A stretch of 64,000 nucleotides of DNA, from the IMG/VR virus record IMGVR_UViG_3300009314_000001. The stretch is one strand, 5' to 3'. Every line of letters begins with the position of its first letter. Position 1 is the stretch's first letter. This document shows positions 1 to 37,864 of this stretch, one piece after another. The notes under the pieces are model-generated. The model ran no database searches, was not told the origin of the DNA, and saw only the letters and a list, made by a program, of their open reading frames with translations. This DNA comes from a virus. Lineage: Duplodnaviria > Caudoviricetes. The position numbers were made by a program, and so were the translations under genes.

Positions 1-563
1 GATGCTCCTTTTCCGATATCCATGGCACTAATAATATTCCTACGTAGCCATGAGATAAATGAGGATCTCGATTCGTCATGCCCTTCTGCGAATGCTTCGC
101 TAAGTCCTAGTAAGCCATTACCGAATAGGTCTAGTACGAAGGTCAAGTCTTTGTCGCGACCTTTATTCCTTGCTATCATTCGGGCTAGCCGCCACATGGG
201 AGATCCACCCATATGTCCGTATGTTGGGCTTCTTGGGTGGTCTTTATGTGCGCTAGGACTTGGGTCACCTGAGTCATTATATAATAGGGATGGGTCACCG
301 GCGTAGGCGATGGTTATTTCGTCGGTTGTCCAGCGTGGGGCTGGACCATTTGGTTTGAATTCTGGGGGTGGATCGCTTCTACTGGTCCATTCACCCTTCC
401 ATAGTGGATTTGGTGTTAGTGGTCCTATAGTGTGATATAGGGCGTCTTCTGCGAATTGACGGTCATAGTCTGGGGAACCTGGATCTTTCCATGCGGTATA
501 ATTAGCACCTGATTCTATTAGTAGGGATAATTTATTCTGTAGCCTGTCAAGTATTGATGACAT
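1..563 (-). CDS. Partial (runs off window edge) sigma-70 region-2-like protein with N-terminal extension
   Basis: Hand translation: AGGAG RBS, ATG at 563, open to position 1. Contains MWRLARMIARNK..DLTFVLDLFGNGLLGLSEAF..SSFISWLRRNIISAM, which resembles sigma-70 regions 2.1-2.4. Absent from the ORF track. Confidence 0.55.
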   Translation of the reverse strand, partial: MSSILDRLQNKLSLLIESGANYTAWKDPGSPDYDRQFAEDALYHTIGPLTPNPLWKGEWTSRSDPPPEFKPNGPAPRWTTDEITIAYAGDPSLLYNDSGDPSPSAHKDHPRSPTYGHMGGSPMWRLARMIARNKGRDKDLTFVLDLFGNGLLGLSEAFAEGHDESRSSFISWLRRNIISAMDIGKGA

Positions 564-590
564 AGTGATTCTCCTAGATATTGCTATTAA

Positions 591-598
591 TATATTTG
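591..598 (-). promoter_or_regulatory. CAAANATA motif (putative late promoter)
   Basis: CAAATATA on the minus strand, 27 nt upstream of ATG 563. Confidence 0.45.
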
Positions 599-602
599 CG
601 GA

Positions 603-629
603 TTTAACCTATAAGATCTATTGGTAACA
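603..629 (+). promoter_or_regulatory. TTTAACN-N14-GTAACA motif (putative early promoter)
   Basis: tttaacc-tataagatctattg-gtaaca upstream of ORF 684. Confidence 0.6.
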
Positions 630-683
630 CCTTTACAGAGGTAATCAAGGCACACAGATGGAGATGTATTGCTATTCTAAATC

Positions 684-986
684 ATGAACTTCGACGCATT
701 TGAAATTGTCTCTATTGATAGAAGAAAAACCTTCGTAGAGGTTGTGTATAGGGATGATGGTGAGACGGAAGTTCCAGGAGCCGATTGTGTACTTATCGAA
801 GAAACCGCCCAATTGAAACTAAATTTGGGGCAACCAGCGGCGGCATTGTACGAAGATGTTGCTCGTGAGATCTCCTGGATAGATCAATTGGATGCCCATA
901 CTTTCAAAATGAGAGTCGATATTCACGATTGGGATTTTGACGATGGCGAATCACAAACGGAAGAGAAGCAGCAAACGGAGCGTTAG
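684..986 (+). CDS. Hypothetical protein
   Basis: 100-aa ORF downstream of a promoter motif. Confidence 0.55.
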   Translation: MNFDAFEIVSIDRRKTFVEVVYRDDGETEVPGADCVLIEETAQLKLNLGQPAAALYEDVAREISWIDQLDAHTFKMRVDIHDWDFDDGESQTEEKQQTER

Positions 987-1091
987 GTGCACTATCTGTA
1001 CTACCCATCGCTGGTTAGGTAACGCTAGGGAGCGATTCAAGAAAAAAGACGAACAAGAAATGCGGGACAAAGAAAGGCTTGAAGAAAGATC

Positions 1092-1337
1092 ATGCAACAT
1101 AAAGAATTAGGCGAACTTCTCCCAGAAGAAGGCCTCCAAGTAATTGCAGAATTTAAGGAGGAATTGGCCGCTGGTCAATATGATCGTATGGACTATTTAG
1201 ATGTCCATGCTGTGTTGCGTGCTCGGTTACGTCCGTTTCGCGAGTATTCCAGCGTCAGGGGAATGACTGATGAGGATTATTTCGTGCTTGTGATCCTCCA
1301 AGGATTGGGTGTGAAAGGCACGGAACAATTCATGTAG
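1092..1337 (+). CDS. Hypothetical protein
   Basis: 81-aa ORF; its TAG stop overlaps the first base of the following tRNA. Confidence 0.5.
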   Translation: MQHKELGELLPEEGLQVIAEFKEELAAGQYDRMDYLDVHAVLRARLRPFREYSSVRGMTDEDYFVLVILQGLGVKGTEQFM

Positions 1338-1408
1338 GGCCTATAGCACAACGGTTAGTGCGCCGGACTCATAATCCGTGGATGGGGGTTCGATTCCCTC
1401 TAGGCCCA
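1337..1408 (+). tRNA. tRNA with CAT anticodon (Ile2 or elongator Met)
   Basis: Acceptor GGGCCTA/TAGGCCC, loop CTCATAA, GGTTCGATTCC T-arm. The G1:C72 pair argues against an initiator. CCA is not encoded. Confidence 0.9.
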
Positions 1409-1410
1409 CT

Positions 1411-1596
1411 GCCGGAACGGTATGGCATTAAACTGTGTGGGAGGGTTGTTCGAGATAATCCGTGACCTTTTGATCACATAGGACCGTTCAACGGCTGTGG
1501 ATCTGATTACGAGACAAATACTGATCAGCCAATAGAAAAAGATCGGCATGCCAGTGTCAAAACAGATTAGTTCAACTCAAACTGGCCAGATCCACT
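1411..1596 (+). ncRNA. Candidate structured ncRNA between two tRNAs
   Basis: Stems gaacggt/accgttc, ctgtgtg/cacatag, gtggatctg/cagatccac, ctgatc/gatcgg, ccagt/actgg; no ORF in the track. Confidence 0.5.
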
Positions 1597-1598
1597 AC

Positions 1599-1673
1599 GC
1601 GCCGATGGTCTGATAAGGCAAGACAGCTCCTCTCGTTTAGGAGCGGACGTAGGTTCGAATCCTACTCGGTGCG
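1599..1673 (+). tRNA. Atypical tRNA: Glu-like body with a 9-nt anticodon loop
   Basis: Acceptor GCGCCGA/TCGGTGC, D-stem GTCT/AGAC, stem GCTCC/GGAGC around TCTCGTTTA, T-arm GTAGG-TTCGAAT-CCTAC, G73. Confidence 0.7.
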
Positions 1674-1676
1674 CTT

Positions 1677-2417
1677 ATGCAAACTCGAAGTATCAGACTA
1701 GTTAAACCAGATGATGGGGGATACCGCAAATACTGCAGATATCACTCACTGAGGAATGTAACTCTCCGCGAAAAATGCAAAACATCCAAAGTTCAAGAAT
1801 TATCAGGAGCGATGGAGAAGATCGCCAGGTTTTGGATATCAAGACATACATCAATTCTTGATGAGAGAATTCTTGGATACGAAGAGCGGGTGACGAAAGA
1901 CAGATGGATTTCAAGATATCGAGAAGTGGATGTGGTTCTTGGTGATGACAATCCTGAAACTTTTGTTGAAATCAAGTTCTCATCGAGGAATGCTGTCGCA
2001 GCTGCTACTTACAGAGCAAGAACACAAGTACACACAACATTAAAGGTAGCATGGAGGAAATGGGCTAGGTTACGAGCTTGTGTATTAGGAGTTGCTTTCA
2101 ATTACTATGAACGCGAGGTACGTGACCTTAACTATGTGGATCTGAACAAAACAATCGCTAAGTGTCCTGAAGGTCCTAGTACTAATATGGACCAATTTCC
2201 ATACGTAGTTGTCAATGCGAGACAATTATGGGAATTTGGTGTGAATCATGGGGTAATCAAGGAGAAATTTAATCTCTTCGATGAAGCTGTAACAGAAAAG
2301 CTCAGTGGAGAGAGTAAGAAGATAGGTAAACGACGAAGGGGTGATTACAAGCCCTATGAAACGGGGGATTTTGAAAAGACAGCTCTTCAGATTGCTCTTG
2401 AAGAGGCAGGGCATTGA
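1677..2417 (+). CDS. PD-(D/E)XK superfamily nuclease
   Basis: E..(REVDVV)..(FVEIKFS) catalytic motif arrangement. Confidence 0.6.
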   Translation: MQTRSIRLVKPDDGGYRKYCRYHSLRNVTLREKCKTSKVQELSGAMEKIARFWISRHTSILDERILGYEERVTKDRWISRYREVDVVLGDDNPETFVEIKFSSRNAVAAATYRARTQVHTTLKVAWRKWARLRACVLGVAFNYYEREVRDLNYVDLNKTIAKCPEGPSTNMDQFPYVVVNARQLWEFGVNHGVIKEKFNLFDEAVTEKLSGESKKIGKRRRGDYKPYETGDFEKTALQIALEEAGH

Positions 2418-2419
2418 AG

Positions 2420-2762
2420 TGAGGTGTTGGTCGAGATTCCATTGAAAACTCGACAACTGGCCTTAGTCTCGAACTGGGTTGGGAGCGTCACCTGCTTCCT
2501 AGGCTAGCATGGGGAAGTGGTGAGACTACCAGGAAGGCTGATACTGGACCGGGGATAGTGCTAATCATGTCGTTAGAGGGCGGGAGCGATAGTGCTTCTG
2601 CTAACCAGCCTAGAGCTGTCTAAGGATGAGTGTACTATTCGATAGCCGCAAGCGTTCAACCGGTGCGACACCTGCTGCAGTCCGGCTCATAACCGGTAGC
2701 TGAAAGTGGCGTGACAGCTAATGCTGCTTAGAGATGAGTAGTGGGAGAGACCGCCCATTTTT
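2420..2762 (+). ncRNA. Candidate large ornate ncRNA
   Basis: At least 7 complementary segments, a possible pseudoknot, an embedded CCGG-CTCATAA-CCGG anticodon-like arm and a terminal T-run. Confidence 0.5.
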
Positions 2763-3158
2763 AAATTGTAGTTTGCGACCAGCATGCAATTTACGATGGT
2801 GATTAGCACAGATGATTTCACAACCGTTTACTTCTTCCATCAACTTTTTGGAAGGGATGTTTCTGGAAACAAAATTAGCAATGCTGAATTCTTTCTTGTC
2901 GGGATCAGGATGATGGAAATCAAGAGCAATTGGGTCCGATTCATCACAATCCAAGATGCAACAGCCTTTTTGTTGCTTAAGATCACTTACGGCTTTGCGT
3001 TTTTGGTTTCGTCTTTTGTTGACGGCCTCTTTGTAAGACCTGGATCGACATCGTTTGCCTTGGCACGTTTTGCAGGCATAGCTATAACCTCTGCCGCGAG
3101 ACGAGTCTTTGTAGAACTCAGAAGGATCTTTGTCGGCTTTGCATTTTGAACATTTCAT
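2718..3158 (-). CDS. HNH (homing) endonuclease
   Basis: CxxC zinc finger, then LDFHHPDP...CEIICANHHRKLH. Probable start is MKCSKC at 3158. Confidence 0.8.
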   Translation of the reverse strand: MKCSKCKADKDPSEFYKDSSRGRGYSYACKTCQGKRCRSRSYKEAVNKRRNQKRKAVSDLKQQKGCCILDCDESDPIALDFHHPDPDKKEFSIANFVSRNIPSKKLMEEVNGCEIICANHHRKLHAGRKLQFKNGRSLPLLISKQH

Positions 3159-5133: not shown

Positions 5134-5667
5134 ATGAAATGTTACGCTTGGATTCTGTTGGTTTTTGTACCCACATCAGCACTCGCTCAATTGGACACGT
5201 CTGGTCTCTCAGACGAACAAGAAGCTGAACTACAGCTTCAAATCGCAAAAATGAAAAACGACAAGCTCCCCGCCTCCGCCGAAGAAGCCGAAAAATGGGC
5301 CGCATGGGGAACAGGAATCGGAAAAGCTATCTCATCCACCGCCAGTGAACTCGGCGTCGCCGTTGACGAATTCTCATGTACGCCGGTCTGCCAGATCACA
5401 ATAGGTGTGATCGTCTACAAAGTCATCGGTAAAGACATACTACGAGCCCTCGCAGGCTTTACCCTATTCTTTGCAACTATCTTCGTATGGGTAAAATGGC
5501 TACGAAAACCATTCGTGAAGATTCAATACGACGGGGATGGTAAAGTGAAAAGTCGAGAATATCGTGCACCCGATAGTGACGCAGAATTAGCTATCTATTG
5601 GGTTCATAACTGGTTGACACTAATCGCAGGTATCCTAGCCTCATTCCTTGTCGCTTTTGCAGGATAA
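5134..5667 (+). CDS. Membrane protein with signal peptide
   Basis: N-terminal signal (..TSALAQ) and several hydrophobic segments. Confidence 0.65.
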   Translation: MKCYAWILLVFVPTSALAQLDTSGLSDEQEAELQLQIAKMKNDKLPASAEEAEKWAAWGTGIGKAISSTASELGVAVDEFSCTPVCQITIGVIVYKVIGKDILRALAGFTLFFATIFVWVKWLRKPFVKIQYDGDGKVKSREYRAPDSDAELAIYWVHNWLTLIAGILASFLVAFAG

Positions 5668-6613: not shown

Positions 6614-7755
6614 CCAAAAGTAGAATTTTTATCCCAAAAACATGTCGTGTCGGCTTTCAACATCGCAAAGACACTTTCACTGGCATGCTGGCGTACGTCA
6701 TCTACTACGACGCCCTCGGAAAAATCCGCAAGGAAAAGAGTTGGAAGGGCTGGTGCCACCTCCCAGGCTGTAAGCATCGAGTGTGGCAAGATGGGAAGAA
6801 TGAACAAGTCGACGGAATCGAACCACAAGACTTCGAGAACGTACCAACATCAGGATTTGTCCTCAATAAAGGCATCCGCCGATTCAACTGGTCTCATTTC
6901 GGTAGCGGACGTTCAATGATCCGCATCTACGACCCACGCGGATATGAATTCGAAGTCACCCCTGAGAACCTCATCGGACTTCTAATGCATACGGACTGCT
7001 CCCGCCGCGAGATACAAGGGGAACTCGTCTACGCGTGGCACGGAACTGAGCTCATGCTTTTACCGTGCAACAGCGAAGAGTATGAAGCGGCCAAGAATTT
7101 TACTCAGCTCCAAGCCAAGAAAGTCGGAGCCAGAGAACTCAAAGAAGGCCTCACGTACGTTACGAAAAGTGAGGAGCACCTTGTCTACGTCGGTCGACAC
7201 AAGTGGTTTGCACAAGGTGGCCGATATGAAGACAAGCCACGGAAGGGTGTGAAATGCCATATCTTCTGCGACCTTGAAGGTAAGAAATTCCGACCAATCA
7301 AAAGTGTGCCAAGTACTATTGCCGCCGTTGCGAATGACCAGCCTCATGATGAGATATCAAACTGGATCGACTCGTACTTGGCCTCGAAACCGGCCGCAGA
7401 GGTCGTCGAGTGGATCAAAAAGCCTTTGACGGACAAGGACTGGGATAGGAATTGGGACCACCACAATACTCGTCTCAATGTTTGCATGGATGGTACTAGC
7501 AATCGTGGAACTCCGGTATTTGTGGAGGTTTCTATTACACAGTATCAATATGGTCATGGGTACTATGGAAGAATGTGGAGCAAGCAACAGGCTCAAAAAG
7601 GTGATCTGGTATATCATACCGGTGCTGAGATAAGTCAAGATGGAACAATTCGCCATCATTACAGATGTAACGATGGCGGACGCGTGATCGATAAGAGTAA
7701 ATTCTTTAAACTTCAGGCCAAAATGTCAAACGGCCTAATCCTAGATTGGAGTTAG
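6610..7755 (+). CDS. Hypothetical phage protein (381 aa)
   Basis: Long ORF, 4-bp overlap with the upstream gene. Confidence 0.7.
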   Translation: MTKSRIFIPKTCRVGFQHRKDTFTGMLAYVIYYDALGKIRKEKSWKGWCHLPGCKHRVWQDGKNEQVDGIEPQDFENVPTSGFVLNKGIRRFNWSHFGSGRSMIRIYDPRGYEFEVTPENLIGLLMHTDCSRREIQGELVYAWHGTELMLLPCNSEEYEAAKNFTQLQAKKVGARELKEGLTYVTKSEEHLVYVGRHKWFAQGGRYEDKPRKGVKCHIFCDLEGKKFRPIKSVPSTIAAVANDQPHDEISNWIDSYLASKPAAEVVEWIKKPLTDKDWDRNWDHHNTRLNVCMDGTSNRGTPVFVEVSITQYQYGHGYYGRMWSKQQAQKGDLVYHTGAEISQDGTIRHHYRCNDGGRVIDKSKFFKLQAKMSNGLILDWS

Positions 7756-9465: not shown

Positions 9466-10732
9466 GTCCTGAGATTTGCACTCTACCACTAAAATCTACA
9501 AGGCCTGTACCACATATTCTATCATGTTTTCTGTGACATTTGTTGTGGCCAATCTGAGTAATATCGTGTTTTGTTGTTGTTATAGATTTCCAGAATTCTT
9601 CCATATCATCATTTAAATGAATATCATCCAATAATAACAAACCTCTATAGTGATTTTTTACTAGATAATCGTATACTTGTTTTTCAAATTCGCCTGTGTG
9701 CTCGGTGTCTACGAATACTAAATCAGCGTCTAATAATTCCTCTTCTTCTCCTATCTCAAATATATTTCCGATTCGTCTTTCTACGTTTGATAGCTCTCTT
9801 AAATTGAACACATCTACAACATCATATGTCAGCACTCTGTTTGTTTTATTAGTCGATAGTGCTAATGCACTGAATCCTGCCTGAGTGCCAAGTTCTACTA
9901 TTTTACCATTATGTATTTGACTGGCTAGGTATGTTAGAAGTGGATAGTGACTATTGTTGATTCTATGATGTGGTACGCGTTTTGTTTTTATATGTGCTTC
10001 AAGTTTACGTGCAGCTTTTCTTCTAAATTCATAAATTGCACTAAGTCTAATAACTATCTCTGTCTCTGATTTTAATACTCTAATATCATTCGTTATTGTT
10101 TGTATTTTTCGTCGCATAAGAGATGGTAGATTTATTGTTGTATAATCGAAATCTCTAAGTTGAAAACATACTAGATTAGCCATATATGGATCATTACCTG
10201 TGTATATTGTGCCAGCAAGTGCGTCGATACCGCGACCTATCACAATGAACACAGCATCTCTATACTTTTTCATTCTATGTAGCAGAGCTTGTTGTGCATG
10301 ACCGATCCCAATTAGAAATATTTTGCTAGAGCTATTTCTTAGTTGCTCTCCCATTGATAACCCCATTTCTCTGGTTTTCAGTACCAGATTAGGATGTGCT
10401 CCATTATTCCATATTGTGATTTTGGTGTTAGTATCTTTTTTGTATTTTGCTAATATTTCACAGATTTCGAGATATTGTGGGTGTAAGGTTGGTTCTCCAC
10501 CACTGACACCTATCTTTCTCCATCTATGGTTTAGTTCTACAGATTCATTAATTAATTGTTTAATTGCTTCTAATGATATATCACCTATTATAGGTGCTTG
10601 TGGACATAATGCGGCACAATTTGGACATGCTACATTACATCTATAAGTTATAGCAAGTTCTAACTTTGTTAATGATGGGCACCAAATAATTTTAGTGGCT
10701 TTGGGGCTTCCGACTTGTCTGTAGACTGGCAT
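9443..10732 (-). CDS. Radical SAM N-terminus fused to a class I SAM methyltransferase
   Basis: CNVACPNC (CxxxCxxC) and GVSGGEPTLHP; C-terminal IVELGTQAGFS, DLVFVDTEH, LLLLDDI. Confidence 0.7.
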   Translation of the reverse strand: MPVYRQVGSPKATKIIWCPSLTKLELAITYRCNVACPNCAALCPQAPIIGDISLEAIKQLINESVELNHRWRKIGVSGGEPTLHPQYLEICEILAKYKKDTNTKITIWNNGAHPNLVLKTREMGLSMGEQLRNSSSKIFLIGIGHAQQALLHRMKKYRDAVFIVIGRGIDALAGTIYTGNDPYMANLVCFQLRDFDYTTINLPSLMRRKIQTITNDIRVLKSETEIVIRLSAIYEFRRKAARKLEAHIKTKRVPHHRINNSHYPLLTYLASQIHNGKIVELGTQAGFSALALSTNKTNRVLTYDVVDVFNLRELSNVERRIGNIFEIGEEEELLDADLVFVDTEHTGEFEKQVYDYLVKNHYRGLLLLDDIHLNDDMEEFWKSITTTKHDITQIGHNKCHRKHDRICGTGLVDFSGRVQISGLTSYKQL

Positions 10733-11387
10733 GTATAGATTTCACTAGTTTTAGTTGTGATTTCGATAATCCGCAATCGTTTATTTCAATTCCAGTTGTA
10801 TCTTTTGCTAAATGTAATTTACAACATAATTCTGGACTATCAATAGCAATACTCTTTAGACCTGTTGATACCATTCTTTTAAATAGCTCTCGTTCTTCGC
10901 AGGTATCTGTATCTGGATAATCTATATTAACTGGTCTGGTGAATACCATTGTGTTGAGTATTGCACCAGTATTATTAGTCTGAATTCTTGCCCGCCCAGA
11001 TACAAAACTGTATGATAATGTACTGGATAGTGCGCAAATATGCACACCTTCCTTAGCCATAGCAGCTACTTGAGACTGTAATCTATCTGGTGCGTGCCAG
11101 TAATCAGGGTCAAATTGAGCTAGAATTTGGCCGTTAGTGGCAGAAATACCATAATTCCTAGCCATTCCCGCCGAAAATTCTACTGGGGTGTCGACAAGGA
11201 AGACATTTTCTTCAGCCATGATATTTAGATCACTGGCTGAAAATTGGTTTGGTGCATTATTGACTACTACTAGCTCTTTATTTGGATAAGTTTGAGCCCT
11301 GAAGCAGTCTATACACAAGATTACATCTGTGATTTTGACACGGCCAGCTAGTAGTATAGCTGAAAGCAGAGGGTATTGATCGTCCAT
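10692..11387 (-). CDS. Glycosyltransferase family 2-like
   Basis: AQTYPNKELVVVNN, MARNYGI, AQFDPDYW (DxD-like). Confidence 0.7.
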   Translation of the reverse strand: MDDQYPLLSAILLAGRVKITDVILCIDCFRAQTYPNKELVVVNNAPNQFSASDLNIMAEENVFLVDTPVEFSAGMARNYGISATNGQILAQFDPDYWHAPDRLQSQVAAMAKEGVHICALSSTLSYSFVSGRARIQTNNTGAILNTMVFTRPVNIDYPDTDTCEERELFKRMVSTGLKSIAIDSPELCCKLHLAKDTTGIEINDCGLSKSQLKLVKSIHASLQTSRKPQSH

Positions 11388-21291: not shown

Positions 21292-21638
21292 ATGCGATTG
21301 CGATTAATAAATGAAGCTTGGGGTAAAGGAAGACCTAGTTCGCACTTTCAACCGGGTGTGGGATGGATAGCCCCGAGTATCTGAAAATACAGAAACAAAA
21401 ACTTCTCGACAAGAAAGGCTATAGCGGTCGTCATTTCGACCCATTAAGTAGACGATCACAAAAACTAAAATGGATGACCCAATTATCTGCTGCACAACAT
21501 GGTATACCGCATCAATACTGGGATAAAGCAATGGGTATATACATCCAAAACGATAAATATAGTGCAGACGAAAGAGGACTCAAAAGATTCCTTAATGATG
21601 TCAAACGAGCACTAGAAATGAGAACGGCAGGACAGTGA
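21292..21638 (+). CDS. Hypothetical protein, apparently frameshifted near 21364
   Basis: MRLRLINEAWG..GVGW (ATG 21292) continues as DSPEYLKIQ in the -1 frame. Confidence 0.45.
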
Positions 21639-22576
21639 GACTTTCTGACGCTCATATCGCCAGCATAGAAGAATCACGCTTAGCCCTCGAAGCCATACCA
21701 ATCCTCGAAAATGGCGAAGGGCCAAGATGGAAATTTCGCTACGATAATTGGGCTCATGATCCATCCCCCGATATCCTACTGTTAGGCGCTTATCAACATC
21801 CAAACACTGGCAACAATCTAGTAGGAGGAATTAACCTACACTATCTCCAACCTAAACAACGAGACAAATTAGCAAAGCATCTACCACAAATAATGTCTGC
21901 CGGAGACAACTTGCAAGCCAGATACCGAGCTGGAGAATTCCTAGTCCCCGAAGTCTTCCAGAATTACTATAGAACATATAATGCTACCTATATAAGAGGT
22001 GTCCAACGTGACACAATGTACCCGAAATATGGCTACATGAAAGCGGCTAAACAATGGCTCAAAAAGAAACTCGCAGGCTTCCTCAAGACCAAAAAACAGC
22101 GACAGAAAGAAGCAGAGCCAAAATATCCACAAGACCTCGAACAAATGCAGGATAGGCTCGACAAAGTCGTTGCTCAACTTCAGCAACAACCACCACCGGA
22201 AGAACCACCAGATACTCCTGAAATGAAAGCGGCTCGCGATGCCTTCCAGCAATACGAACGAGAAAAAACCCTTCAAGATATAGAACGACGTGAAGATATG
22301 CCATTGAGGCAAGCTAAACAGGACGTCAAACAAGGAGAAGAACTAAAACCAGAGAAACCAGAAGTAGGCCCAGAACTAAAAAGAAGACTCGAGCGAGCCA
22401 GCCGAGAAACACAACAAGAATTGAATGACCCCAGCAACAGAATAGATATGGGTGAAGAGGATGAAGATATAGTAGACCACATGGAAGAATCTGTCTCCTA
22501 TTACTCACCAGTGGCTGGGCACTACATTATAGAAGATGTCAGAATACCTCGAAGAGCTGCTAGAGCTAAGAGCTGA
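21635..22576 (+). CDS. T4 gp2-like DNA end protector with C-terminal coiled extension
   Basis: VGGINLHYLQPKQR motif and YYRTYNATYI. Confidence 0.55.
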   Translation: MRLSDAHIASIEESRLALEAIPILENGEGPRWKFRYDNWAHDPSPDILLLGAYQHPNTGNNLVGGINLHYLQPKQRDKLAKHLPQIMSAGDNLQARYRAGEFLVPEVFQNYYRTYNATYIRGVQRDTMYPKYGYMKAAKQWLKKKLAGFLKTKKQRQKEAEPKYPQDLEQMQDRLDKVVAQLQQQPPPEEPPDTPEMKAARDAFQQYEREKTLQDIERREDMPLRQAKQDVKQGEELKPEKPEVGPELKRRLERASRETQQELNDPSNRIDMGEEDEDIVDHMEESVSYYSPVAGHYIIEDVRIPRRAARAKS

Positions 22577-24188
22577 ATTCAATCGCATAGATTTATCAGA
22601 TCAGAAATCTGTGCGCCAATGGTTCGACTCTCATCAGCATTTATCCCGTAATGATCTAGCACAAATAGCAGGAAAATCCAAATACTGGGTAGCGAAACTA
22701 GCAAAATTTGCAGGTCTAAAACAAGCAACACCAAAAAATACACCACCTCCACATAGACGAAAAATAATCCATATAGAAGTACCAGAAAATTGGGATAGAG
22801 AGTGGTTAGAAAAAACCTTACAACTACATGGTTTTAGAGCTATAGCCACGGCCACCGGTTTACATAGAACAACAATCCTAAAGAAAATCAAGAAATGGGG
22901 CATAAAATTCCCTACACGTACAAAACACCCATGTAGAAATAAAAGATGGGTATACGACCACTACGTAGTCAAGGGATTGAGCCAAAGACAATGTGCTGAG
23001 CTAGCCGGAATCTCACCACAAACCTTTTCTAATTGGCTCAATGAATTCCTCATCCCAATAAGAAGATACGGCTGTTATATCCCATTATTCTGGGTGAGAA
23101 AGCTTATTTATGACTTAGAAAGACTAGATGTAGTAAGCAAAGTAGATTATCGCCCAAACAAAGAAAATCAAATCCATGTGAAATTCAAACACAGCAGATG
23201 GGAAACATATTATCCAAACCGAAAAGGATCAAAAAGAAGATATTCACATAATATAGTACGAGCAGACGGCCGCCTAAAAAAGATACCAAGCATTGTATAC
23301 CAATACGAATCAGATATAACTGGTACTAATCAATATTCGGCACATATAGTAATAAGCCGCAAGCAATGGACTGAAGCAAGCCTCCTAGAACAACGCATCG
23401 CCATCCACCGATTCTGCCTGAGAATAGTAGAAAGAGGTTGGGTCTGGCCAACACATCCCACAAAAGTAATCGAAGAAGATTTCAAGGCGGCCCAAAAAGA
23501 AATAGAATCTAGTTACTTCAAAAAAGGGAAATTCACAATATATGGTACACTAGGCTGCAAACCACCAACATGTAGAAAATTACTAGAGCACTTTTTCGAC
23601 CTAAGTGAATTATGGGAAATCCTTCAGAACCCAAAAACCACACTAGCAATACTCAATAAATTAGGATCTCTCAAGATTCCGTTTGATACCCATAATATGC
23701 TACGAGTACTAATCACAAATAAAATGGGTATGAAAACACAAGAAGGCTATCTAGAAACACCAGTCAAGATGCCAGACCCAATGGTATACGTGTATATCTT
23801 TAAACGATTGAGTATTAGCGGGAGAGTACTTGATCTCACACCGGGACATGGCTCAAAAGCAGTTGCTGCTGGTATAGCAGGAGTCCAATATCATACTAAA
23901 CAAGACCCAATAATACAACAAGCAATTGATCTTGGGTTTGGCGATTTTGTTGGTCTTGATTATGGTGCATATGACGGTTCTATGGTTGACTGGACTATTT
24001 GTGATAATAATTTCGTAAGTACTACAGATATTTCACAGGTCGCAACAATTTTACATAACACAAGGAATCTATTAATATTCGTGCGATCTAAAGACAGAAA
24101 AAGTGTACAAGCGAGATTGAAACCAAAAGCGGTAATACCTATCAAGACAGGATATTCTCAAAAGATCGATTACTTGTTCCTGTATTGA
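22536..24188 (+). CDS. Multi-HTH protein with degenerate methyltransferase-like C-terminus
   Basis: Three HTH-like segments; RVLDLTPGHGS motif I; no SPPY/DPPY. Confidence 0.55.
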   Translation: MSEYLEELLELRAEFNRIDLSDQKSVRQWFDSHQHLSRNDLAQIAGKSKYWVAKLAKFAGLKQATPKNTPPPHRRKIIHIEVPENWDREWLEKTLQLHGFRAIATATGLHRTTILKKIKKWGIKFPTRTKHPCRNKRWVYDHYVVKGLSQRQCAELAGISPQTFSNWLNEFLIPIRRYGCYIPLFWVRKLIYDLERLDVVSKVDYRPNKENQIHVKFKHSRWETYYPNRKGSKRRYSHNIVRADGRLKKIPSIVYQYESDITGTNQYSAHIVISRKQWTEASLLEQRIAIHRFCLRIVERGWVWPTHPTKVIEEDFKAAQKEIESSYFKKGKFTIYGTLGCKPPTCRKLLEHFFDLSELWEILQNPKTTLAILNKLGSLKIPFDTHNMLRVLITNKMGMKTQEGYLETPVKMPDPMVYVYIFKRLSISGRVLDLTPGHGSKAVAAGIAGVQYHTKQDPIIQQAIDLGFGDFVGLDYGAYDGSMVDWTICDNNFVSTTDISQVATILHNTRNLLIFVRSKDRKSVQARLKPKAVIPIKTGYSQKIDYLFLY

Positions 24189-24225
24189 CGTTGATTCTAT
24201 ATCTGGCGTAATGGTATTATCACGC

Positions 24226-24233
24226 CAAACATA
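24226..24233 (+). promoter_or_regulatory. CAAANATA motif
   Basis: CAAACATA upstream of ATG 24264. Confidence 0.4.
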
Positions 24234-24263
24234 CTGTAGATATTACAAAAAGGGGATTTGTCT

Positions 24264-26750
24264 ATGGCCGTCACTAGCATTCCTGCCCATACAACATTAG
24301 TAGATGAGCAATTCATTCAAGTAGAAGGGCCTGACCAACTCACAACTGGTTATCAATTCGATAGCCAGCAACGCGCCTTATACTTCAAAGAATCGCAAGT
24401 CCTATTCCCGAGCTTCCATGGCACATCCCATATCGCAGAAGATCCAGTACCAAGTGCTACCTGCGATACACCCGGCTTGATGTCATCTGACGACAAGTGC
24501 AAACTTGACGCAATGCTTCAAACAAGACTAGGGGTGGTAGGATTCCAAGGCGGTGGCTTCCCAGATGATGGTGGCTGGCTACAAGGGGATATTATCCTAG
24601 CAGCTGGCACCGAATTCATCAGCCTGGAACGCATCGGAAACGTAGTCAGATTCACCGTCGATAGTCCCATTCCTCTTAATTGTGCCTGCGAAGAATGTAA
24701 TCAGATATTCTGGGTACAAGATGAAACAGACATAGCATCCATCAGGCCTCCCACGTGTGGTGGTAAACTACCGGGAGTAAATGCCTATGGTGAGATGAAA
24801 GTCTATATGTTCCCAGAGTCAACACTTGTTGACCCAAATGACGCATCCGCCGTTCTCAATAACAAGGGTGATTATCCATCACTCGTGTTTAAGAGATATG
24901 ATGATACAATAGTACCTGGTGCAGCCGAATACGAATGTGTTCTAAAACGAGACAGCGAGAACAGAACTGTCACAGAGATCGGGTGGGCTTTCACACCAGG
25001 TGCAACAGGTGTTCCAGAACTAGTCTATTTCCTGGGCAAAGACGACGATGGCAATCAAATCAGATTCGACGTCGAACCACAATCAACACCTGGACTACTT
25101 GGATCAATCCTCTATAAGGGCCACCTAATCACAAAGAAAATGGGGTGTGTTGTTGATTATACAGCAACTATTCTCAGCACCAATCAATACACACTAAAAG
25201 AATGGGACGTAGACGCCGCAGAAGCCCTTGGTGATGCCTTTACAGCAACCAACGCCTGGCAATATAATAATCCGGAAAATGCAAAAACCGGAGCAAATCC
25301 ACAATCTATGATTTTGGATTCCTCAATTGACTTATTACCAATAGGTACACTAGTCGACATTTGGTCCTTTAAAGTCGGCGAAGTATCTGGAGAACCCATA
25401 CTACGACATTACTTCTCACAAAGACCAACATTCAATCCTAATAATGCTTGGGCATGGGTCGGTTGTTTACAATTTGGAGATATTGTCACAGCACGTGAAG
25501 AAGTAATGCCAGGTCCTGGTAGCGAGGATCGAGAAGCCTCTGTCGACGTTTCAGCAATCAGAAATATAGAAAGAAATTTGTGGGGCATTACTGGGTATGA
25601 TGACCCTATAATGAGTTTCGATATTGCTCAACTTGCTGGAACAGCCGGTGCTGATCTTAATATGCAACATAGAGCTATGATCGACACGACTCTACCAGGA
25701 CTCAAGGTTGAAACAAGTCCGTCAGCAGTGGATGACTTCAGCGAACGGCCGGTTTGGGTTTGGAACAGAAAAGCAGCGTGTAATTGGTTATTGCGAACTG
25801 ATATCGGACGGCCAGATAGTTCTGATTTCGTCCCATTTGATATCGCTTTACGGGCTGATATTGATGAGAACGTCAACAGGTATTTGCGTGTGATAGGTAC
25901 TGGTACTATTGACGGTCTACATTACGTGAGAGTTTGCGGGGCAGATTTCCATGACTTGCCACCATTCGGTGCTGTTAGGGTACTGACTTCAGGAAATGAG
26001 AATGAGATCTTCAATTATACTAGAAAATTCATGTACCCAACGATGCCACTCGCAGAACCCACAGTAGGTACGGAACCAACTGGCGGTTGGGAATACACTC
26101 TTGATTGTAATTCAATAGTACTGACTGGTGATGCAAGTTCTAATGTGCCTTATCCAGGTGCGGCGGGTGATATAGTAGAACTGCTTCACCAAGAATACTC
26201 ATGCCCGATAGTAAGATGCGAATTCTCCTACAATCCATCAACTGGATTAGTAGAATTACAATTTAAAGTAGGCACGCTTGATATGGGCGAGGCTTACGAA
26301 GAGGATTTAAGTGACGATATAGATGATTACGTACGTGGGCTTGAGGCTGGGTACGCTGTCAGTGCTGTCTACTCACAAGCTGGCCCGTACACTGGTGTTG
26401 GCACACAACCTGATTCATCTCCAGAAGGATTTGTTGTCCTTGATGGCGGTGCCCAATTGGGAGGTGAACAAAGCGAATACTGGAATAGACTAGAAATAAT
26501 GCTGAGAGATGACCAGGTATGGATTTGGTGGAACCAATTATTGATTCCGCCGAATGCTAGCCTAAGTGCTGCATTGCCCACTCCGGTTGATGTTAGCACA
26601 CCTTATTTCCCAATTACGCAAAATGTGAATAAACTTAATGGGAAGATAGGTTTAAGATTGTGGCCTGGTGCTAAAGTACGCCGACTAGACCTAAGAACTC
26701 AGTTGAATACGTTTAATGAATTTGCTTATGGTCAGTTGGAAGTTACTTAA
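24264..26750 (+). CDS. Large putative virion (tail/fibre) protein
   Basis: About 828 aa, acidic and beta-rich; ATCDTPGLMSSDDKCKLD motif shared with the 42458 and 44896 genes. Confidence 0.65.
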   Translation: MAVTSIPAHTTLVDEQFIQVEGPDQLTTGYQFDSQQRALYFKESQVLFPSFHGTSHIAEDPVPSATCDTPGLMSSDDKCKLDAMLQTRLGVVGFQGGGFPDDGGWLQGDIILAAGTEFISLERIGNVVRFTVDSPIPLNCACEECNQIFWVQDETDIASIRPPTCGGKLPGVNAYGEMKVYMFPESTLVDPNDASAVLNNKGDYPSLVFKRYDDTIVPGAAEYECVLKRDSENRTVTEIGWAFTPGATGVPELVYFLGKDDDGNQIRFDVEPQSTPGLLGSILYKGHLITKKMGCVVDYTATILSTNQYTLKEWDVDAAEALGDAFTATNAWQYNNPENAKTGANPQSMILDSSIDLLPIGTLVDIWSFKVGEVSGEPILRHYFSQRPTFNPNNAWAWVGCLQFGDIVTAREEVMPGPGSEDREASVDVSAIRNIERNLWGITGYDDPIMSFDIAQLAGTAGADLNMQHRAMIDTTLPGLKVETSPSAVDDFSERPVWVWNRKAACNWLLRTDIGRPDSSDFVPFDIALRADIDENVNRYLRVIGTGTIDGLHYVRVCGADFHDLPPFGAVRVLTSGNENEIFNYTRKFMYPTMPLAEPTVGTEPTGGWEYTLDCNSIVLTGDASSNVPYPGAAGDIVELLHQEYSCPIVRCEFSYNPSTGLVELQFKVGTLDMGEAYEEDLSDDIDDYVRGLEAGYAVSAVYSQAGPYTGVGTQPDSSPEGFVVLDGGAQLGGEQSEYWNRLEIMLRDDQVWIWWNQLLIPPNASLSAALPTPVDVSTPYFPITQNVNKLNGKIGLRLWPGAKVRRLDLRTQLNTFNEFAYGQLEVT

Positions 26751-32592: not shown

Positions 32593-33060
32593 CTAAACAA
32601 GATCTATCAAGGATTCTAATAGACGAATCCTAGCTTCTATTGGTTGCCCGCTGCCTTTTCTGACAGTCCTAAATACAAGTGAATCGAATGTGCCTTTAAG
32701 ATTAGGGGCACCATATGTACCATCATTAAAATCATATCCCCAGAATAATTCTATCTCACCAGTCTCGGAACTGCCCAATCCGGTTTCTTTGATAGTCCTC
32801 ATATCTTTTTGTAGTCTTGTTTGTACTGCTTGTCGAAGTTTGAGGAATACTTCTCTAGCTCCATCTATTGGTTCTTTGGGTGTATGAATTACGTGTCTGC
32901 CAGATTTTAGAAGACCCAGAGGCTCTAGTACATTCCTAGCTTTTGCCATTATTAGATTACTGAAGGCCTTGAGTTTCAGTTCAAGAATGATACGGTTCGA
33001 GTGTTCTTGGTCGTGCCAAGTTTCTATAATCATTCCTTCAGCGATATATCTAAGTTTCAT
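32593..33060 (-). CDS. Hypothetical, possibly head-packaged protein
   Basis: N-terminus MKLRYIAEG; CAAAAATA 4 nt upstream. Confidence 0.6.
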   Translation of the reverse strand: MKLRYIAEGMIIETWHDQEHSNRIILELKLKAFSNLIMAKARNVLEPLGLLKSGRHVIHTPKEPIDGAREVFLKLRQAVQTRLQKDMRTIKETGLGSSETGEIELFWGYDFNDGTYGAPNLKGTFDSLVFRTVRKGSGQPIEARIRLLESLIDLV

Positions 33061-37645: not shown

Positions 37646-37864
37646 TTAGTCCCCAACATCGGGATATTTCCTTTTTACCGCTGCCCGCACTTTTTTCTTC
37701 TCGGCAGGGCTCCCATGCTGTGAAACACGCGATAAAGCATTTCTAGCATGGGATTTATCGTGGATTGGGTATCTTCTCTCACCAGGAAAAACAAAAGAAG
37801 AATCATCAAGATTCTTACGAGCCTTAGTCGTGAGCTTCTTTTCGACTATTTGTCTGAGGCGCAT
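37646..37864 (-). CDS. Small basic DUF6582-like protein
   Basis: LTTKARKNL..SFVFPGERRYPIHDKSHARNALSR..YP. Confidence 0.65.
   Translation of the reverse strand: MRLRQIVEKKLTTKARKNLDDSSFVFPGERRYPIHDKSHARNALSRVSQHGSPAEKKKVRAAVKRKYPDVGD

Follow-up and report, generated by a model that had tools for sequence, protein, structure and literature searches.

The left end of the 64,000-nucleotide stretch of phage DNA analysed here (the window) raises the question of whether a gene that exits its edge encodes a sigma-like factor that is produced late in infection, carried in the virion and delivered to the next host. Large phages that lack a polymerase of their own must take over host transcription, and the known solutions are sigma factors produced after infection or enzymes packaged in the particle. 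The analysis described below leads us to favour, tentatively and with less than even confidence, a protein derived from sigma domain 2 that would be made late, loaded into the head and ejected with the DNA.

The initial annotation described a minus-strand ORF with an AGGAG site running off the window edge, and the coordinates of both features bear this description out. Specifically, the ORF occupies window positions 3..563(-) and comprises 187 codons from ATG 563 to an open 3' end off the left edge, while the ribosome-binding site AGGAG lies at 571..575(-), 7 nt 5' of the start codon. The ORF is missing from default ORF lists only because it exits the window edge. The peptide that had been quoted from it is likewise present, but the positions assigned to that peptide, 21-197, are those of nucleotides, which encode residues 123-181. 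Retrieval of the full gene, suggested at the time as a check, was accomplished by means of the identical contig Ga0171657_1000251 (JGI; locus L001), which matches window positions 1-700 at 100% identity. The complete gene is located at L001:6893-9880(-) and consists of 995 codons specifying the protein designated P0002. Window 3-563(-) is a genuine 5' gene fragment, covering aa 1-187 of 995, and the remainder lies to the left of the window at L001:6893-9317(-). The retrieved product is not sigma-sized: at 995 aa, it exceeds an ordinary sigma factor three- to fivefold.

When 1.8 billion representatives were searched exhaustively, the 187-aa fragment returned 58 proteins, 43 of them below 1e-30, and a word-indexed search with the same fragment returned 48. 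All members of the resulting sigma-like family are uncultured, unnamed and devoid of Pfam domains, and full-length relatives are mostly 550-950 aa in length. A 30-member alignment reveals conserved blocks at approximately aa 20-330 and aa 545-720, with variable segments between and after them; in the copy of the window phage, aa 733-794 additionally form a DUF3008-like module, beyond which a private extension reaches residue 995, and the ESM Atlas contains no usable match for this C-terminal extension (aa 795-995). Among cultured phages, megablast with window positions 1-3000 yielded no match, the conserved blocks were found in none by megablast, PHROGs or tblastn, and the tblastn match is confined to the DUF3008-like module, in hypothetical proteins of T4-like cyanophages. 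Pfam and PHROGs searches with both the fragment and the full protein detected nothing beyond that same module. The module itself (P0002 aa 733-794; L001 about 7499-7684) is rich in Lys and common to many T4-like cyanophage hypotheticals, and in many other family members its place is taken by another C-terminal module, also Lys-rich (GWKGT...NPYALAWSM...PHYKD). The presence of different modules at the same place suggests that these Lys-rich C-terminal modules are swapped. No paper mentioning DUF3008 was found in the literature.

An AlphaFold2 model covers aa 1-730, with pLDDT >90 in the conserved blocks. Within the window-encoded part, aa 35-116 (216..461(-)) form a Pro/Trp-rich, highly conserved segment (pLDDT ~94) in which a helix is followed by a long ordered loop. 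The helix, aa 35-43, is placed like sigma region 1.2 by structural alignment, and residues Y33, R35, Q36, A38 and E39 are invariant within the 30-member alignment. This segment is succeeded by a three-helix domain resembling sigma-70 regions 2.1-2.4, aa 116-187 (3..218(-)), which extends to approximately aa 194 outside the window.

The resemblance to sigma-70 region 2, on which the initial annotation was founded, is corroborated by Pfam, PDB profile, hhalign, ESM Atlas and VIA comparisons, each of which remains below curated threshold. Pfam Sigma70_r2, for which the curated threshold is 24 bits, produces weak matches in 11 of 30 family members scanned singly (best whole-protein E 9e-4); in P0009, aa 115-165 align with profile positions 7-55 at 12.3 bits. 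The window protein itself gives no match to Sigma70_r2 even at E<=10, and none of the sigma-like family members tested reaches the curated threshold. When all PDB sequences were searched, a profile of aa 110-200 placed SigH (3mzy) at the top with an E (0.77) that is not significant, and a profile of the whole alignment returned cytochrome b562 alone (E 0.48), which was taken as noise. The hhalign comparison with an alignment of E. coli RpoD, RpoS, RpoH, FliA and RpoE gives a probability of 69.5% (E 4e-5; 59 columns, from region 2.1 to region 2.4), and a probability of 61% (E 8e-5; range 59-62 columns) once three ordinary sigma genes of the relatives are added. In the register of this alignment, the invariant residues D145 and G150, together with the conserved residues N149, L154, F169 and Y/W172, fall on signature positions of sigma 2.2/2.3; the positions equivalent to W433/W434 are not kept in the family.

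Structure-based comparisons converge on the same domain. For aa 105-200, Sigma70_r2 is present in 81 of the 100 nearest named clusters of the ESM Atlas, and aa 116-200 are covered by each of the ten structural alignments (TM 0.58-0.65), nine of which are to sigma-70-type clusters. Similarly, VIA structural alignment of the AlphaFold2 model against 48,161 PDB representatives places sigma rows among the top 50. These rows span Z 5.4-6.4, scores that are middling for helical proteins, and include SigB (8x6g_H; Z 6.4, rmsd 2.2, 19% identity), an RpoS fragment comprising r1.2+r2 (5h6x_B; Z 6.1, 89/96 residues, over model residues 34..322) and the N-terminal domain of SigE (8b3z_A). Taken together, five concordant tests, sub-threshold individually, make it very probable from sequence and modelled structure that aa 116-194 are homologous to sigma domain 2.

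The likeness to the sigma-2 domain of sigma-70 factors, especially those of groups 3/4 (SigH, SigB, ECF-type), consists of three helices aligning with 2.1-2.4, retention of the D-L-x-x-N/E-G-x-I-x-L (2.2) and F-I/S-S/T-Y/W (2.3) positions, a preceding helix placed like 1.2 and a long 1.2-2.1 insert, as in primary sigmas. In contrast to sigma-70, the phage protein is 995 aa in length (550-950 in relatives), falls below every curated threshold, has no demonstrable region 3 or 4, and adds an N-terminal leader, a second family-specific domain and the swappable Lys-rich C-terminal modules. Sigma regions 1.2 and 2 clamp onto the beta-prime coiled coil of RNAP and read and melt the -10 element. Derivation of the N-terminal domain from sigma-70 regions 1.2/2 thus suggests a factor that binds host RNAP.

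A sigma-70 region 4, the other hallmark for which the full protein had been proposed to be searched, was not found by hhalign, Foldseek or the ESM Atlas, and the second conserved block offers HTH-like hints alone. Folded by itself, aa 540-730 gives a confident model (pLDDT 89, pTM 0.82) for which Foldseek against the PDB returns no match at E<=0.001 and the best VIA score is Z 5.9. Among the VIA rows is a weak alignment (Z 5.0, rmsd 1.5, 62 aa) with residues 199-261 of 9n9q_C, an HTH-like C-terminal extension of a Cas12f-associated sigma-E (domain identity: bioRxiv 10.1101/2025.06.10.658880), and a weaker one (Z 3.5) with region 4 of sigma-28; in both, the same set of aa 540-730 helices is aligned to HTH-type units. 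The hhalign comparison of an aa 540-730 profile with sigma alignments yielded nothing significant (probability <1%), the best non-significant stretch (probability 0.6%) falling on the first helix of region 4.2, and an ESM Atlas search with the second conserved block returned no region 4 match.

The identity of the phage that carries this gene was approached by walking along the identical 290-kb contig Ga0117909_1000009 (289,811 bp), which carries the same genes and overlaps the window tail with 4732/4732 identical bases. Located on it, ~15-25 kb beyond the right end of the window, are Portal_T4, a 1007-aa gene, Peptidase_S77 (L129:6728-7447), a 241-aa scaffold-like gene and Gp23, and by its gene content the window phage belongs among the T4-type marine jumbo phages. 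Marine, lake, sediment and soil metagenomes all contain the capsid gene of this lineage; in a metagenome scan with the lineage gp23, the window's own contig was not among the best 80. Between the portal and prohead protease genes, ~19-23 kb beyond the window's right end, lie the 1007-aa gene (L129:3705-6728) and a 185-aa gene whose product starts MRINE (L129:3088-3645). In T4 this position belongs to the prohead-core genes gp67 and gp68, and both genes are, by analogy, candidates for large internal head proteins. A 337-aa gene beside gp23 (L129:10001-11014, ~14-15 kb past the window's right end) encodes several Cys-x-x-Cys pairs, has a faint Zn_Ribbon_TF match, and is possibly a transcription factor.

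A scan of viral contigs with the single protein found no relatives, and an alignment-based scan of viral contigs placed relatives on four T4-type contigs of 408, 354, 176 and 146 kb. Peptidase_S77 and Gp23 are present in all four, and RNA_pol_Rpb2_6 is detectable in none of them. The jumbo phages designated 'group 2' are characterized by a gp23-type capsid, the lack of an RNAP of their own and the possession of phage sigma factors (PMC7824862), a pattern that the four relatives match in their predicted gene complement.

In the relatives, the sigma-like gene is located 35-53 kb from the head module, and the gene order is glycosyltransferase, sigma-like gene, and then genes of ~310 (~313), ~550 and ~830 aa. 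In the window, the glycosyltransferase is found at 10692-11387(-) and the counterparts of the ~310/550/830-aa genes at 21635-26750(+); as the glycosyltransferase and the three downstream genes are now elsewhere, the sigma-like locus appears to have been rearranged in the window phage. About 10-20 kb of other genes are inserted or rearranged between the sigma-like gene and the neighbours that it has in the relatives. A 452-aa reverse transcriptase (RVT_1; L001:5549-6907(+)), preceded by imperfect 38-nt direct repeats at L001:5286-5323 and 5440-5477, converges on the sigma-like gene, sharing 15 nt with its 3' end. No reverse transcriptase adjoins the sigma-like gene in the relatives, so that this arrangement is specific to the window phage. 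The idea that the sigma-like gene is the target of a diversity-generating retroelement (DGR) involving this reverse transcriptase was rejected, as no template/variable repeat was found in L001:1-10300.

Whether the protein is likely to be produced late is addressed by the sequences upstream of its gene. The box CAAATATA, at 591..598(-) and 28 nt 5' of the ATG, is a lineage-wide, -10-type promoter-like element and candidate late promoter. In the window as a whole the motif CAAANATA is not enriched (18 copies, 14 expected). Eleven window copies lie 5-40 nt 5' of same-strand starts, usually with a Shine-Dalgarno sequence between (window 591-598, 4445, 11398, 13788, 16850, 24226, 28735, 33065, 40668, 40710 and 48865). 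All four relatives, in which the protein is 38-45% identical, have CAAANATA 25-35 nt 5' of the sigma-like gene. Among upstream 8-mers of the 354-kb relative, G003, the two commonest forms of the motif, CAAATATA and CAAAAATA, rank second and third by enrichment (7.9-fold), and 30 of 97 motif copies fall within the intergenic 5% of the genome.

The claim that this upstream motif is common to structural genes holds to the extent that it precedes the scaffold/capsid unit in both G003 and the window phage. In the former, CAAANATA lies ahead of the scaffold/MCP unit, one copy is situated 12 nt before one tail-tube ORF, and looser CAAANNTA forms are found ahead of the sheath gene and another tube ORF; in the latter, CAAATATA lies 43 nt 5' of the scaffold-like gene preceding gp23 (L129, start 7520). 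PHROG annotation of ten CAAANATA-preceded genes in G003 supplied no structural names, and several genes behind the motif, including a nuclease-like and a protease-like gene, are not obviously structural. The late promoter of T4 is a lone -10-type TATAAATA box that is read by gp55, and CAAANATA fits, by analogy, a lone -10-type late promoter of this kind. Late expression of the sigma-like gene is plausible, since the motif upstream of it also precedes the scaffold/capsid unit; given that several CAAANATA genes are not obviously structural, the term 'late' is used here as a reading of promoter sharing.

A second promoter-like element at this locus, the divergent bipartite motif reported in the initial annotation, is indeed present beside the gene as TTTAAC-N15-GTAACA at 603..629(+), where it faces away from the sigma-like gene and toward a plus-strand gene at 684. 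With spacers of 12-16 nt (TTTAAC-N12-16-GTAACA), five copies occur in the window where 0.05 are expected. The proposal that TTTAAC-N14-GTAACA is the target promoter of the sigma-like protein fared less well: adjacency is its sole support, and G003, itself a carrier of the sigma-like gene, shows no enrichment of the motif (one copy, 0.4 expected), making the link between the two weak. Both complete relatives also encode ordinary sigma genes, three of which were aligned and show regions 2 and 4, and such factors are better candidates for readers of the bipartite promoter.

Packaging, as opposed to late production, is suggested by the N-terminus of the protein. The N-terminal helix encoded by codons 1-17 (513..563(-)) terminates in L-I-E, which makes it a candidate capsid-targeting leader with a putative gp21-type cleavage site. 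The L-I-E motif noted from the window is confirmed at residues 15-17, and the AlphaFold2 model has a helix at residues 2-17 followed by pLDDT <50 at 17-20. Among family sequences with an intact N-terminus, 66 of 70 possess [LIMVF]-x-E at positions 12-19, almost always in the form [L/I]-x-E with N, S, D or E as the next residue. The T4 gp21 protease cleaves at the consensus L/I-x-E. In the gp23 of the window phage the T4-like maturation position reads I-L-E|D, and that of the relatives has I-F/L-E|D just before the conserved mature N-terminus; these sites suggest that the specificity of the prohead protease has probably been retained.

An HMM of the 17-aa leader, applied to 7,638 candidate N-termini of G003 (354 kb) and the window, recovered the family member itself alone. 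The notion of the leader as a shared address tag was rejected, since no other ORF of G003 or the window has it, and in this respect the leader is not a shared tag like the CTS of the T4 internal proteins. Conservation of the leader could simply be part of the fold. A shorter and different leader, M[KR]L..I.E (e.g. MKLRYIAE), is found on small genes, in five ORFs of G003 and two of the window; as a control, it occurs at 1/2007 internal Met positions in G003 and 0/357 in the window. Genes starting with it lie at window 32593-33060(-) and 37646-37864(-) and at G003 102861, 117884, 181389 and 216168, and CAAANATA precedes four of the seven ORFs. These genes seem to resemble T4-style internal head proteins with a capsid-targeting leader, a tag that the predicted N-terminus of the sigma-like protein does not share.

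A late-type motif upstream, combined with a leader ending in a head-protease cut site, makes head loading and injection plausible, and both T4 internal proteins and foreign proteins have been shown to enter the head via a capsid-targeting sequence (PMC3012670). According to the mechanism that we propose, the sigma-like protein would be made late from the CAAANATA promoter, loaded into the prohead via its N-terminal leader, trimmed after Glu17 by the Peptidase_S77 of the phage, and ejected into the next host together with the DNA, where it would capture or redirect host RNAP before any phage gene is expressed. We infer RNAP binding, late timing, cleavage, packaging and ejection from the features described above. 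Counting against this reading are several observations: no sigma test reaches a curated threshold and no region 4 was found; the leader is unshared, and in the relatives 35-53 kb separate the gene from the head module; and no cultured relative was found. Literature searches retrieved no report of a virion-packaged sigma factor.

Packaging and injection nonetheless stands as the leading reading, and its nearest rival, which we regard as possible but rather doubtful, is a sigma-derived RNAP-binding factor that remains unpackaged and acts where it is made, the N-terminal helix having a function of its own. Such a factor might, for example, confer auxiliary or very-late specificity, or might compete with host sigma and displace it late in infection. 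The region 2 evidence fits this rival equally well, as do a leader unique to the sigma-like family and a gene located outside the head module, and it is in keeping with the known presence of several sigma factors in T4-type jumbo phages that lack an RNAP (PMC7824862). It leaves unexplained, however, the [L/I]-x-E and flexible linker conserved in 66 of 70 members, the phages of which possess a protease of that specificity; moreover, a factor devoted to late transcription is not normally located behind a late-type motif itself.

Improbable, in our estimation, is an internal head or scaffold-core protein in which a helical domain merely resembles sigma region 2 and which has no role in transcription. 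Such a protein would account for the sub-threshold nature of every sigma signal, for the outcome of Foldseek with the whole 730-aa model (no match in the PDB at E<=0.001) and for the lack of any sigma-like feature in aa 186-995, and three-helix units are common; yet independent methods single out one stretch of 60-80 residues in a common register, the 2.2/2.3 signature positions are kept, and the highest sequence identities in the VIA list are those to sigma chains (17-19%). Similarly improbable is a counterpart of T4 gp55, that is, a region-2-only sigma that reads a -10-only CAAANATA with positive feedback from its own promoter: a sigma-2-like module alone is recognizable in the protein, CAAANATA, near start codons, has the behaviour of a lone -10-type box and T4 gp55 reads the lone TATAAATA box, but the sigma-like protein is 3-5 times the size of gp55 (~185 aa), which is neither solely late-controlled nor equipped with a head-targeting leader, both complete relatives encode smaller sigma-type genes, some of them above the Sigma70_r2 cut-off, and first expression would need another promoter, none of which was identified.

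The favoured reading, that of a packaged and injected factor, can be compared with known phage systems in which proteins travel with the genome. With T4 IPI-III and Alt, which are characterized by a CTS, gp21 cleavage and ejection with the DNA, the sigma-like protein shares an N-terminal peptide ending in hydrophobic-x-Glu, and the window phage possesses Peptidase_S77, a gp23-type capsid, a T4-type portal and the late-type motif. T4 Alt, moreover, is an example of an injected protein with host RNAP as its target. Differences from the T4 internal proteins include a leader of 17 aa rather than 10 that is not common to other proteins of the phage, and the nature of the cargo, which here would be a putative sigma-like RNAP binder, whereas in T4 it is a nuclease inhibitor or an ADP-ribosyltransferase. 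The virion RNAPs of N4-like, phiKZ-like and crAss-like phages are similar in that transcription machinery is carried in the particle for immediate reading of early genes; unlike those phages, which package a polymerase, the phage described here would send a specificity or RNAP-binding subunit alone, with host RNAP doing the work.

Even without packaging, this undescribed family, the conserved domains of which have no Pfam or PHROG assignment, shows the extent to which sigma domain 2 can diverge while built into a protein of ~600-1000 residues. A bolder and, on present evidence, rather unlikely proposition is that T4-type jumbo phages of marine and fresh waters load members of a family of giant sigma-derived proteins into their heads by means of an N-terminal leader that the protease removes, and that these proteins, injected with the DNA, reprogram host RNAP at genome entry as a ready-made specificity subunit of the phage. 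If true, this would add a third route to the packaging of polymerases (N4, phiKZ, crAss) and that of RNAP-modifying enzymes (T4 Alt). A packaged sigma-like subunit would, if its existence is borne out, constitute a new strategy for the take-over of host transcription, and would explain how such phages may use non-host promoters from the first minute of infection.
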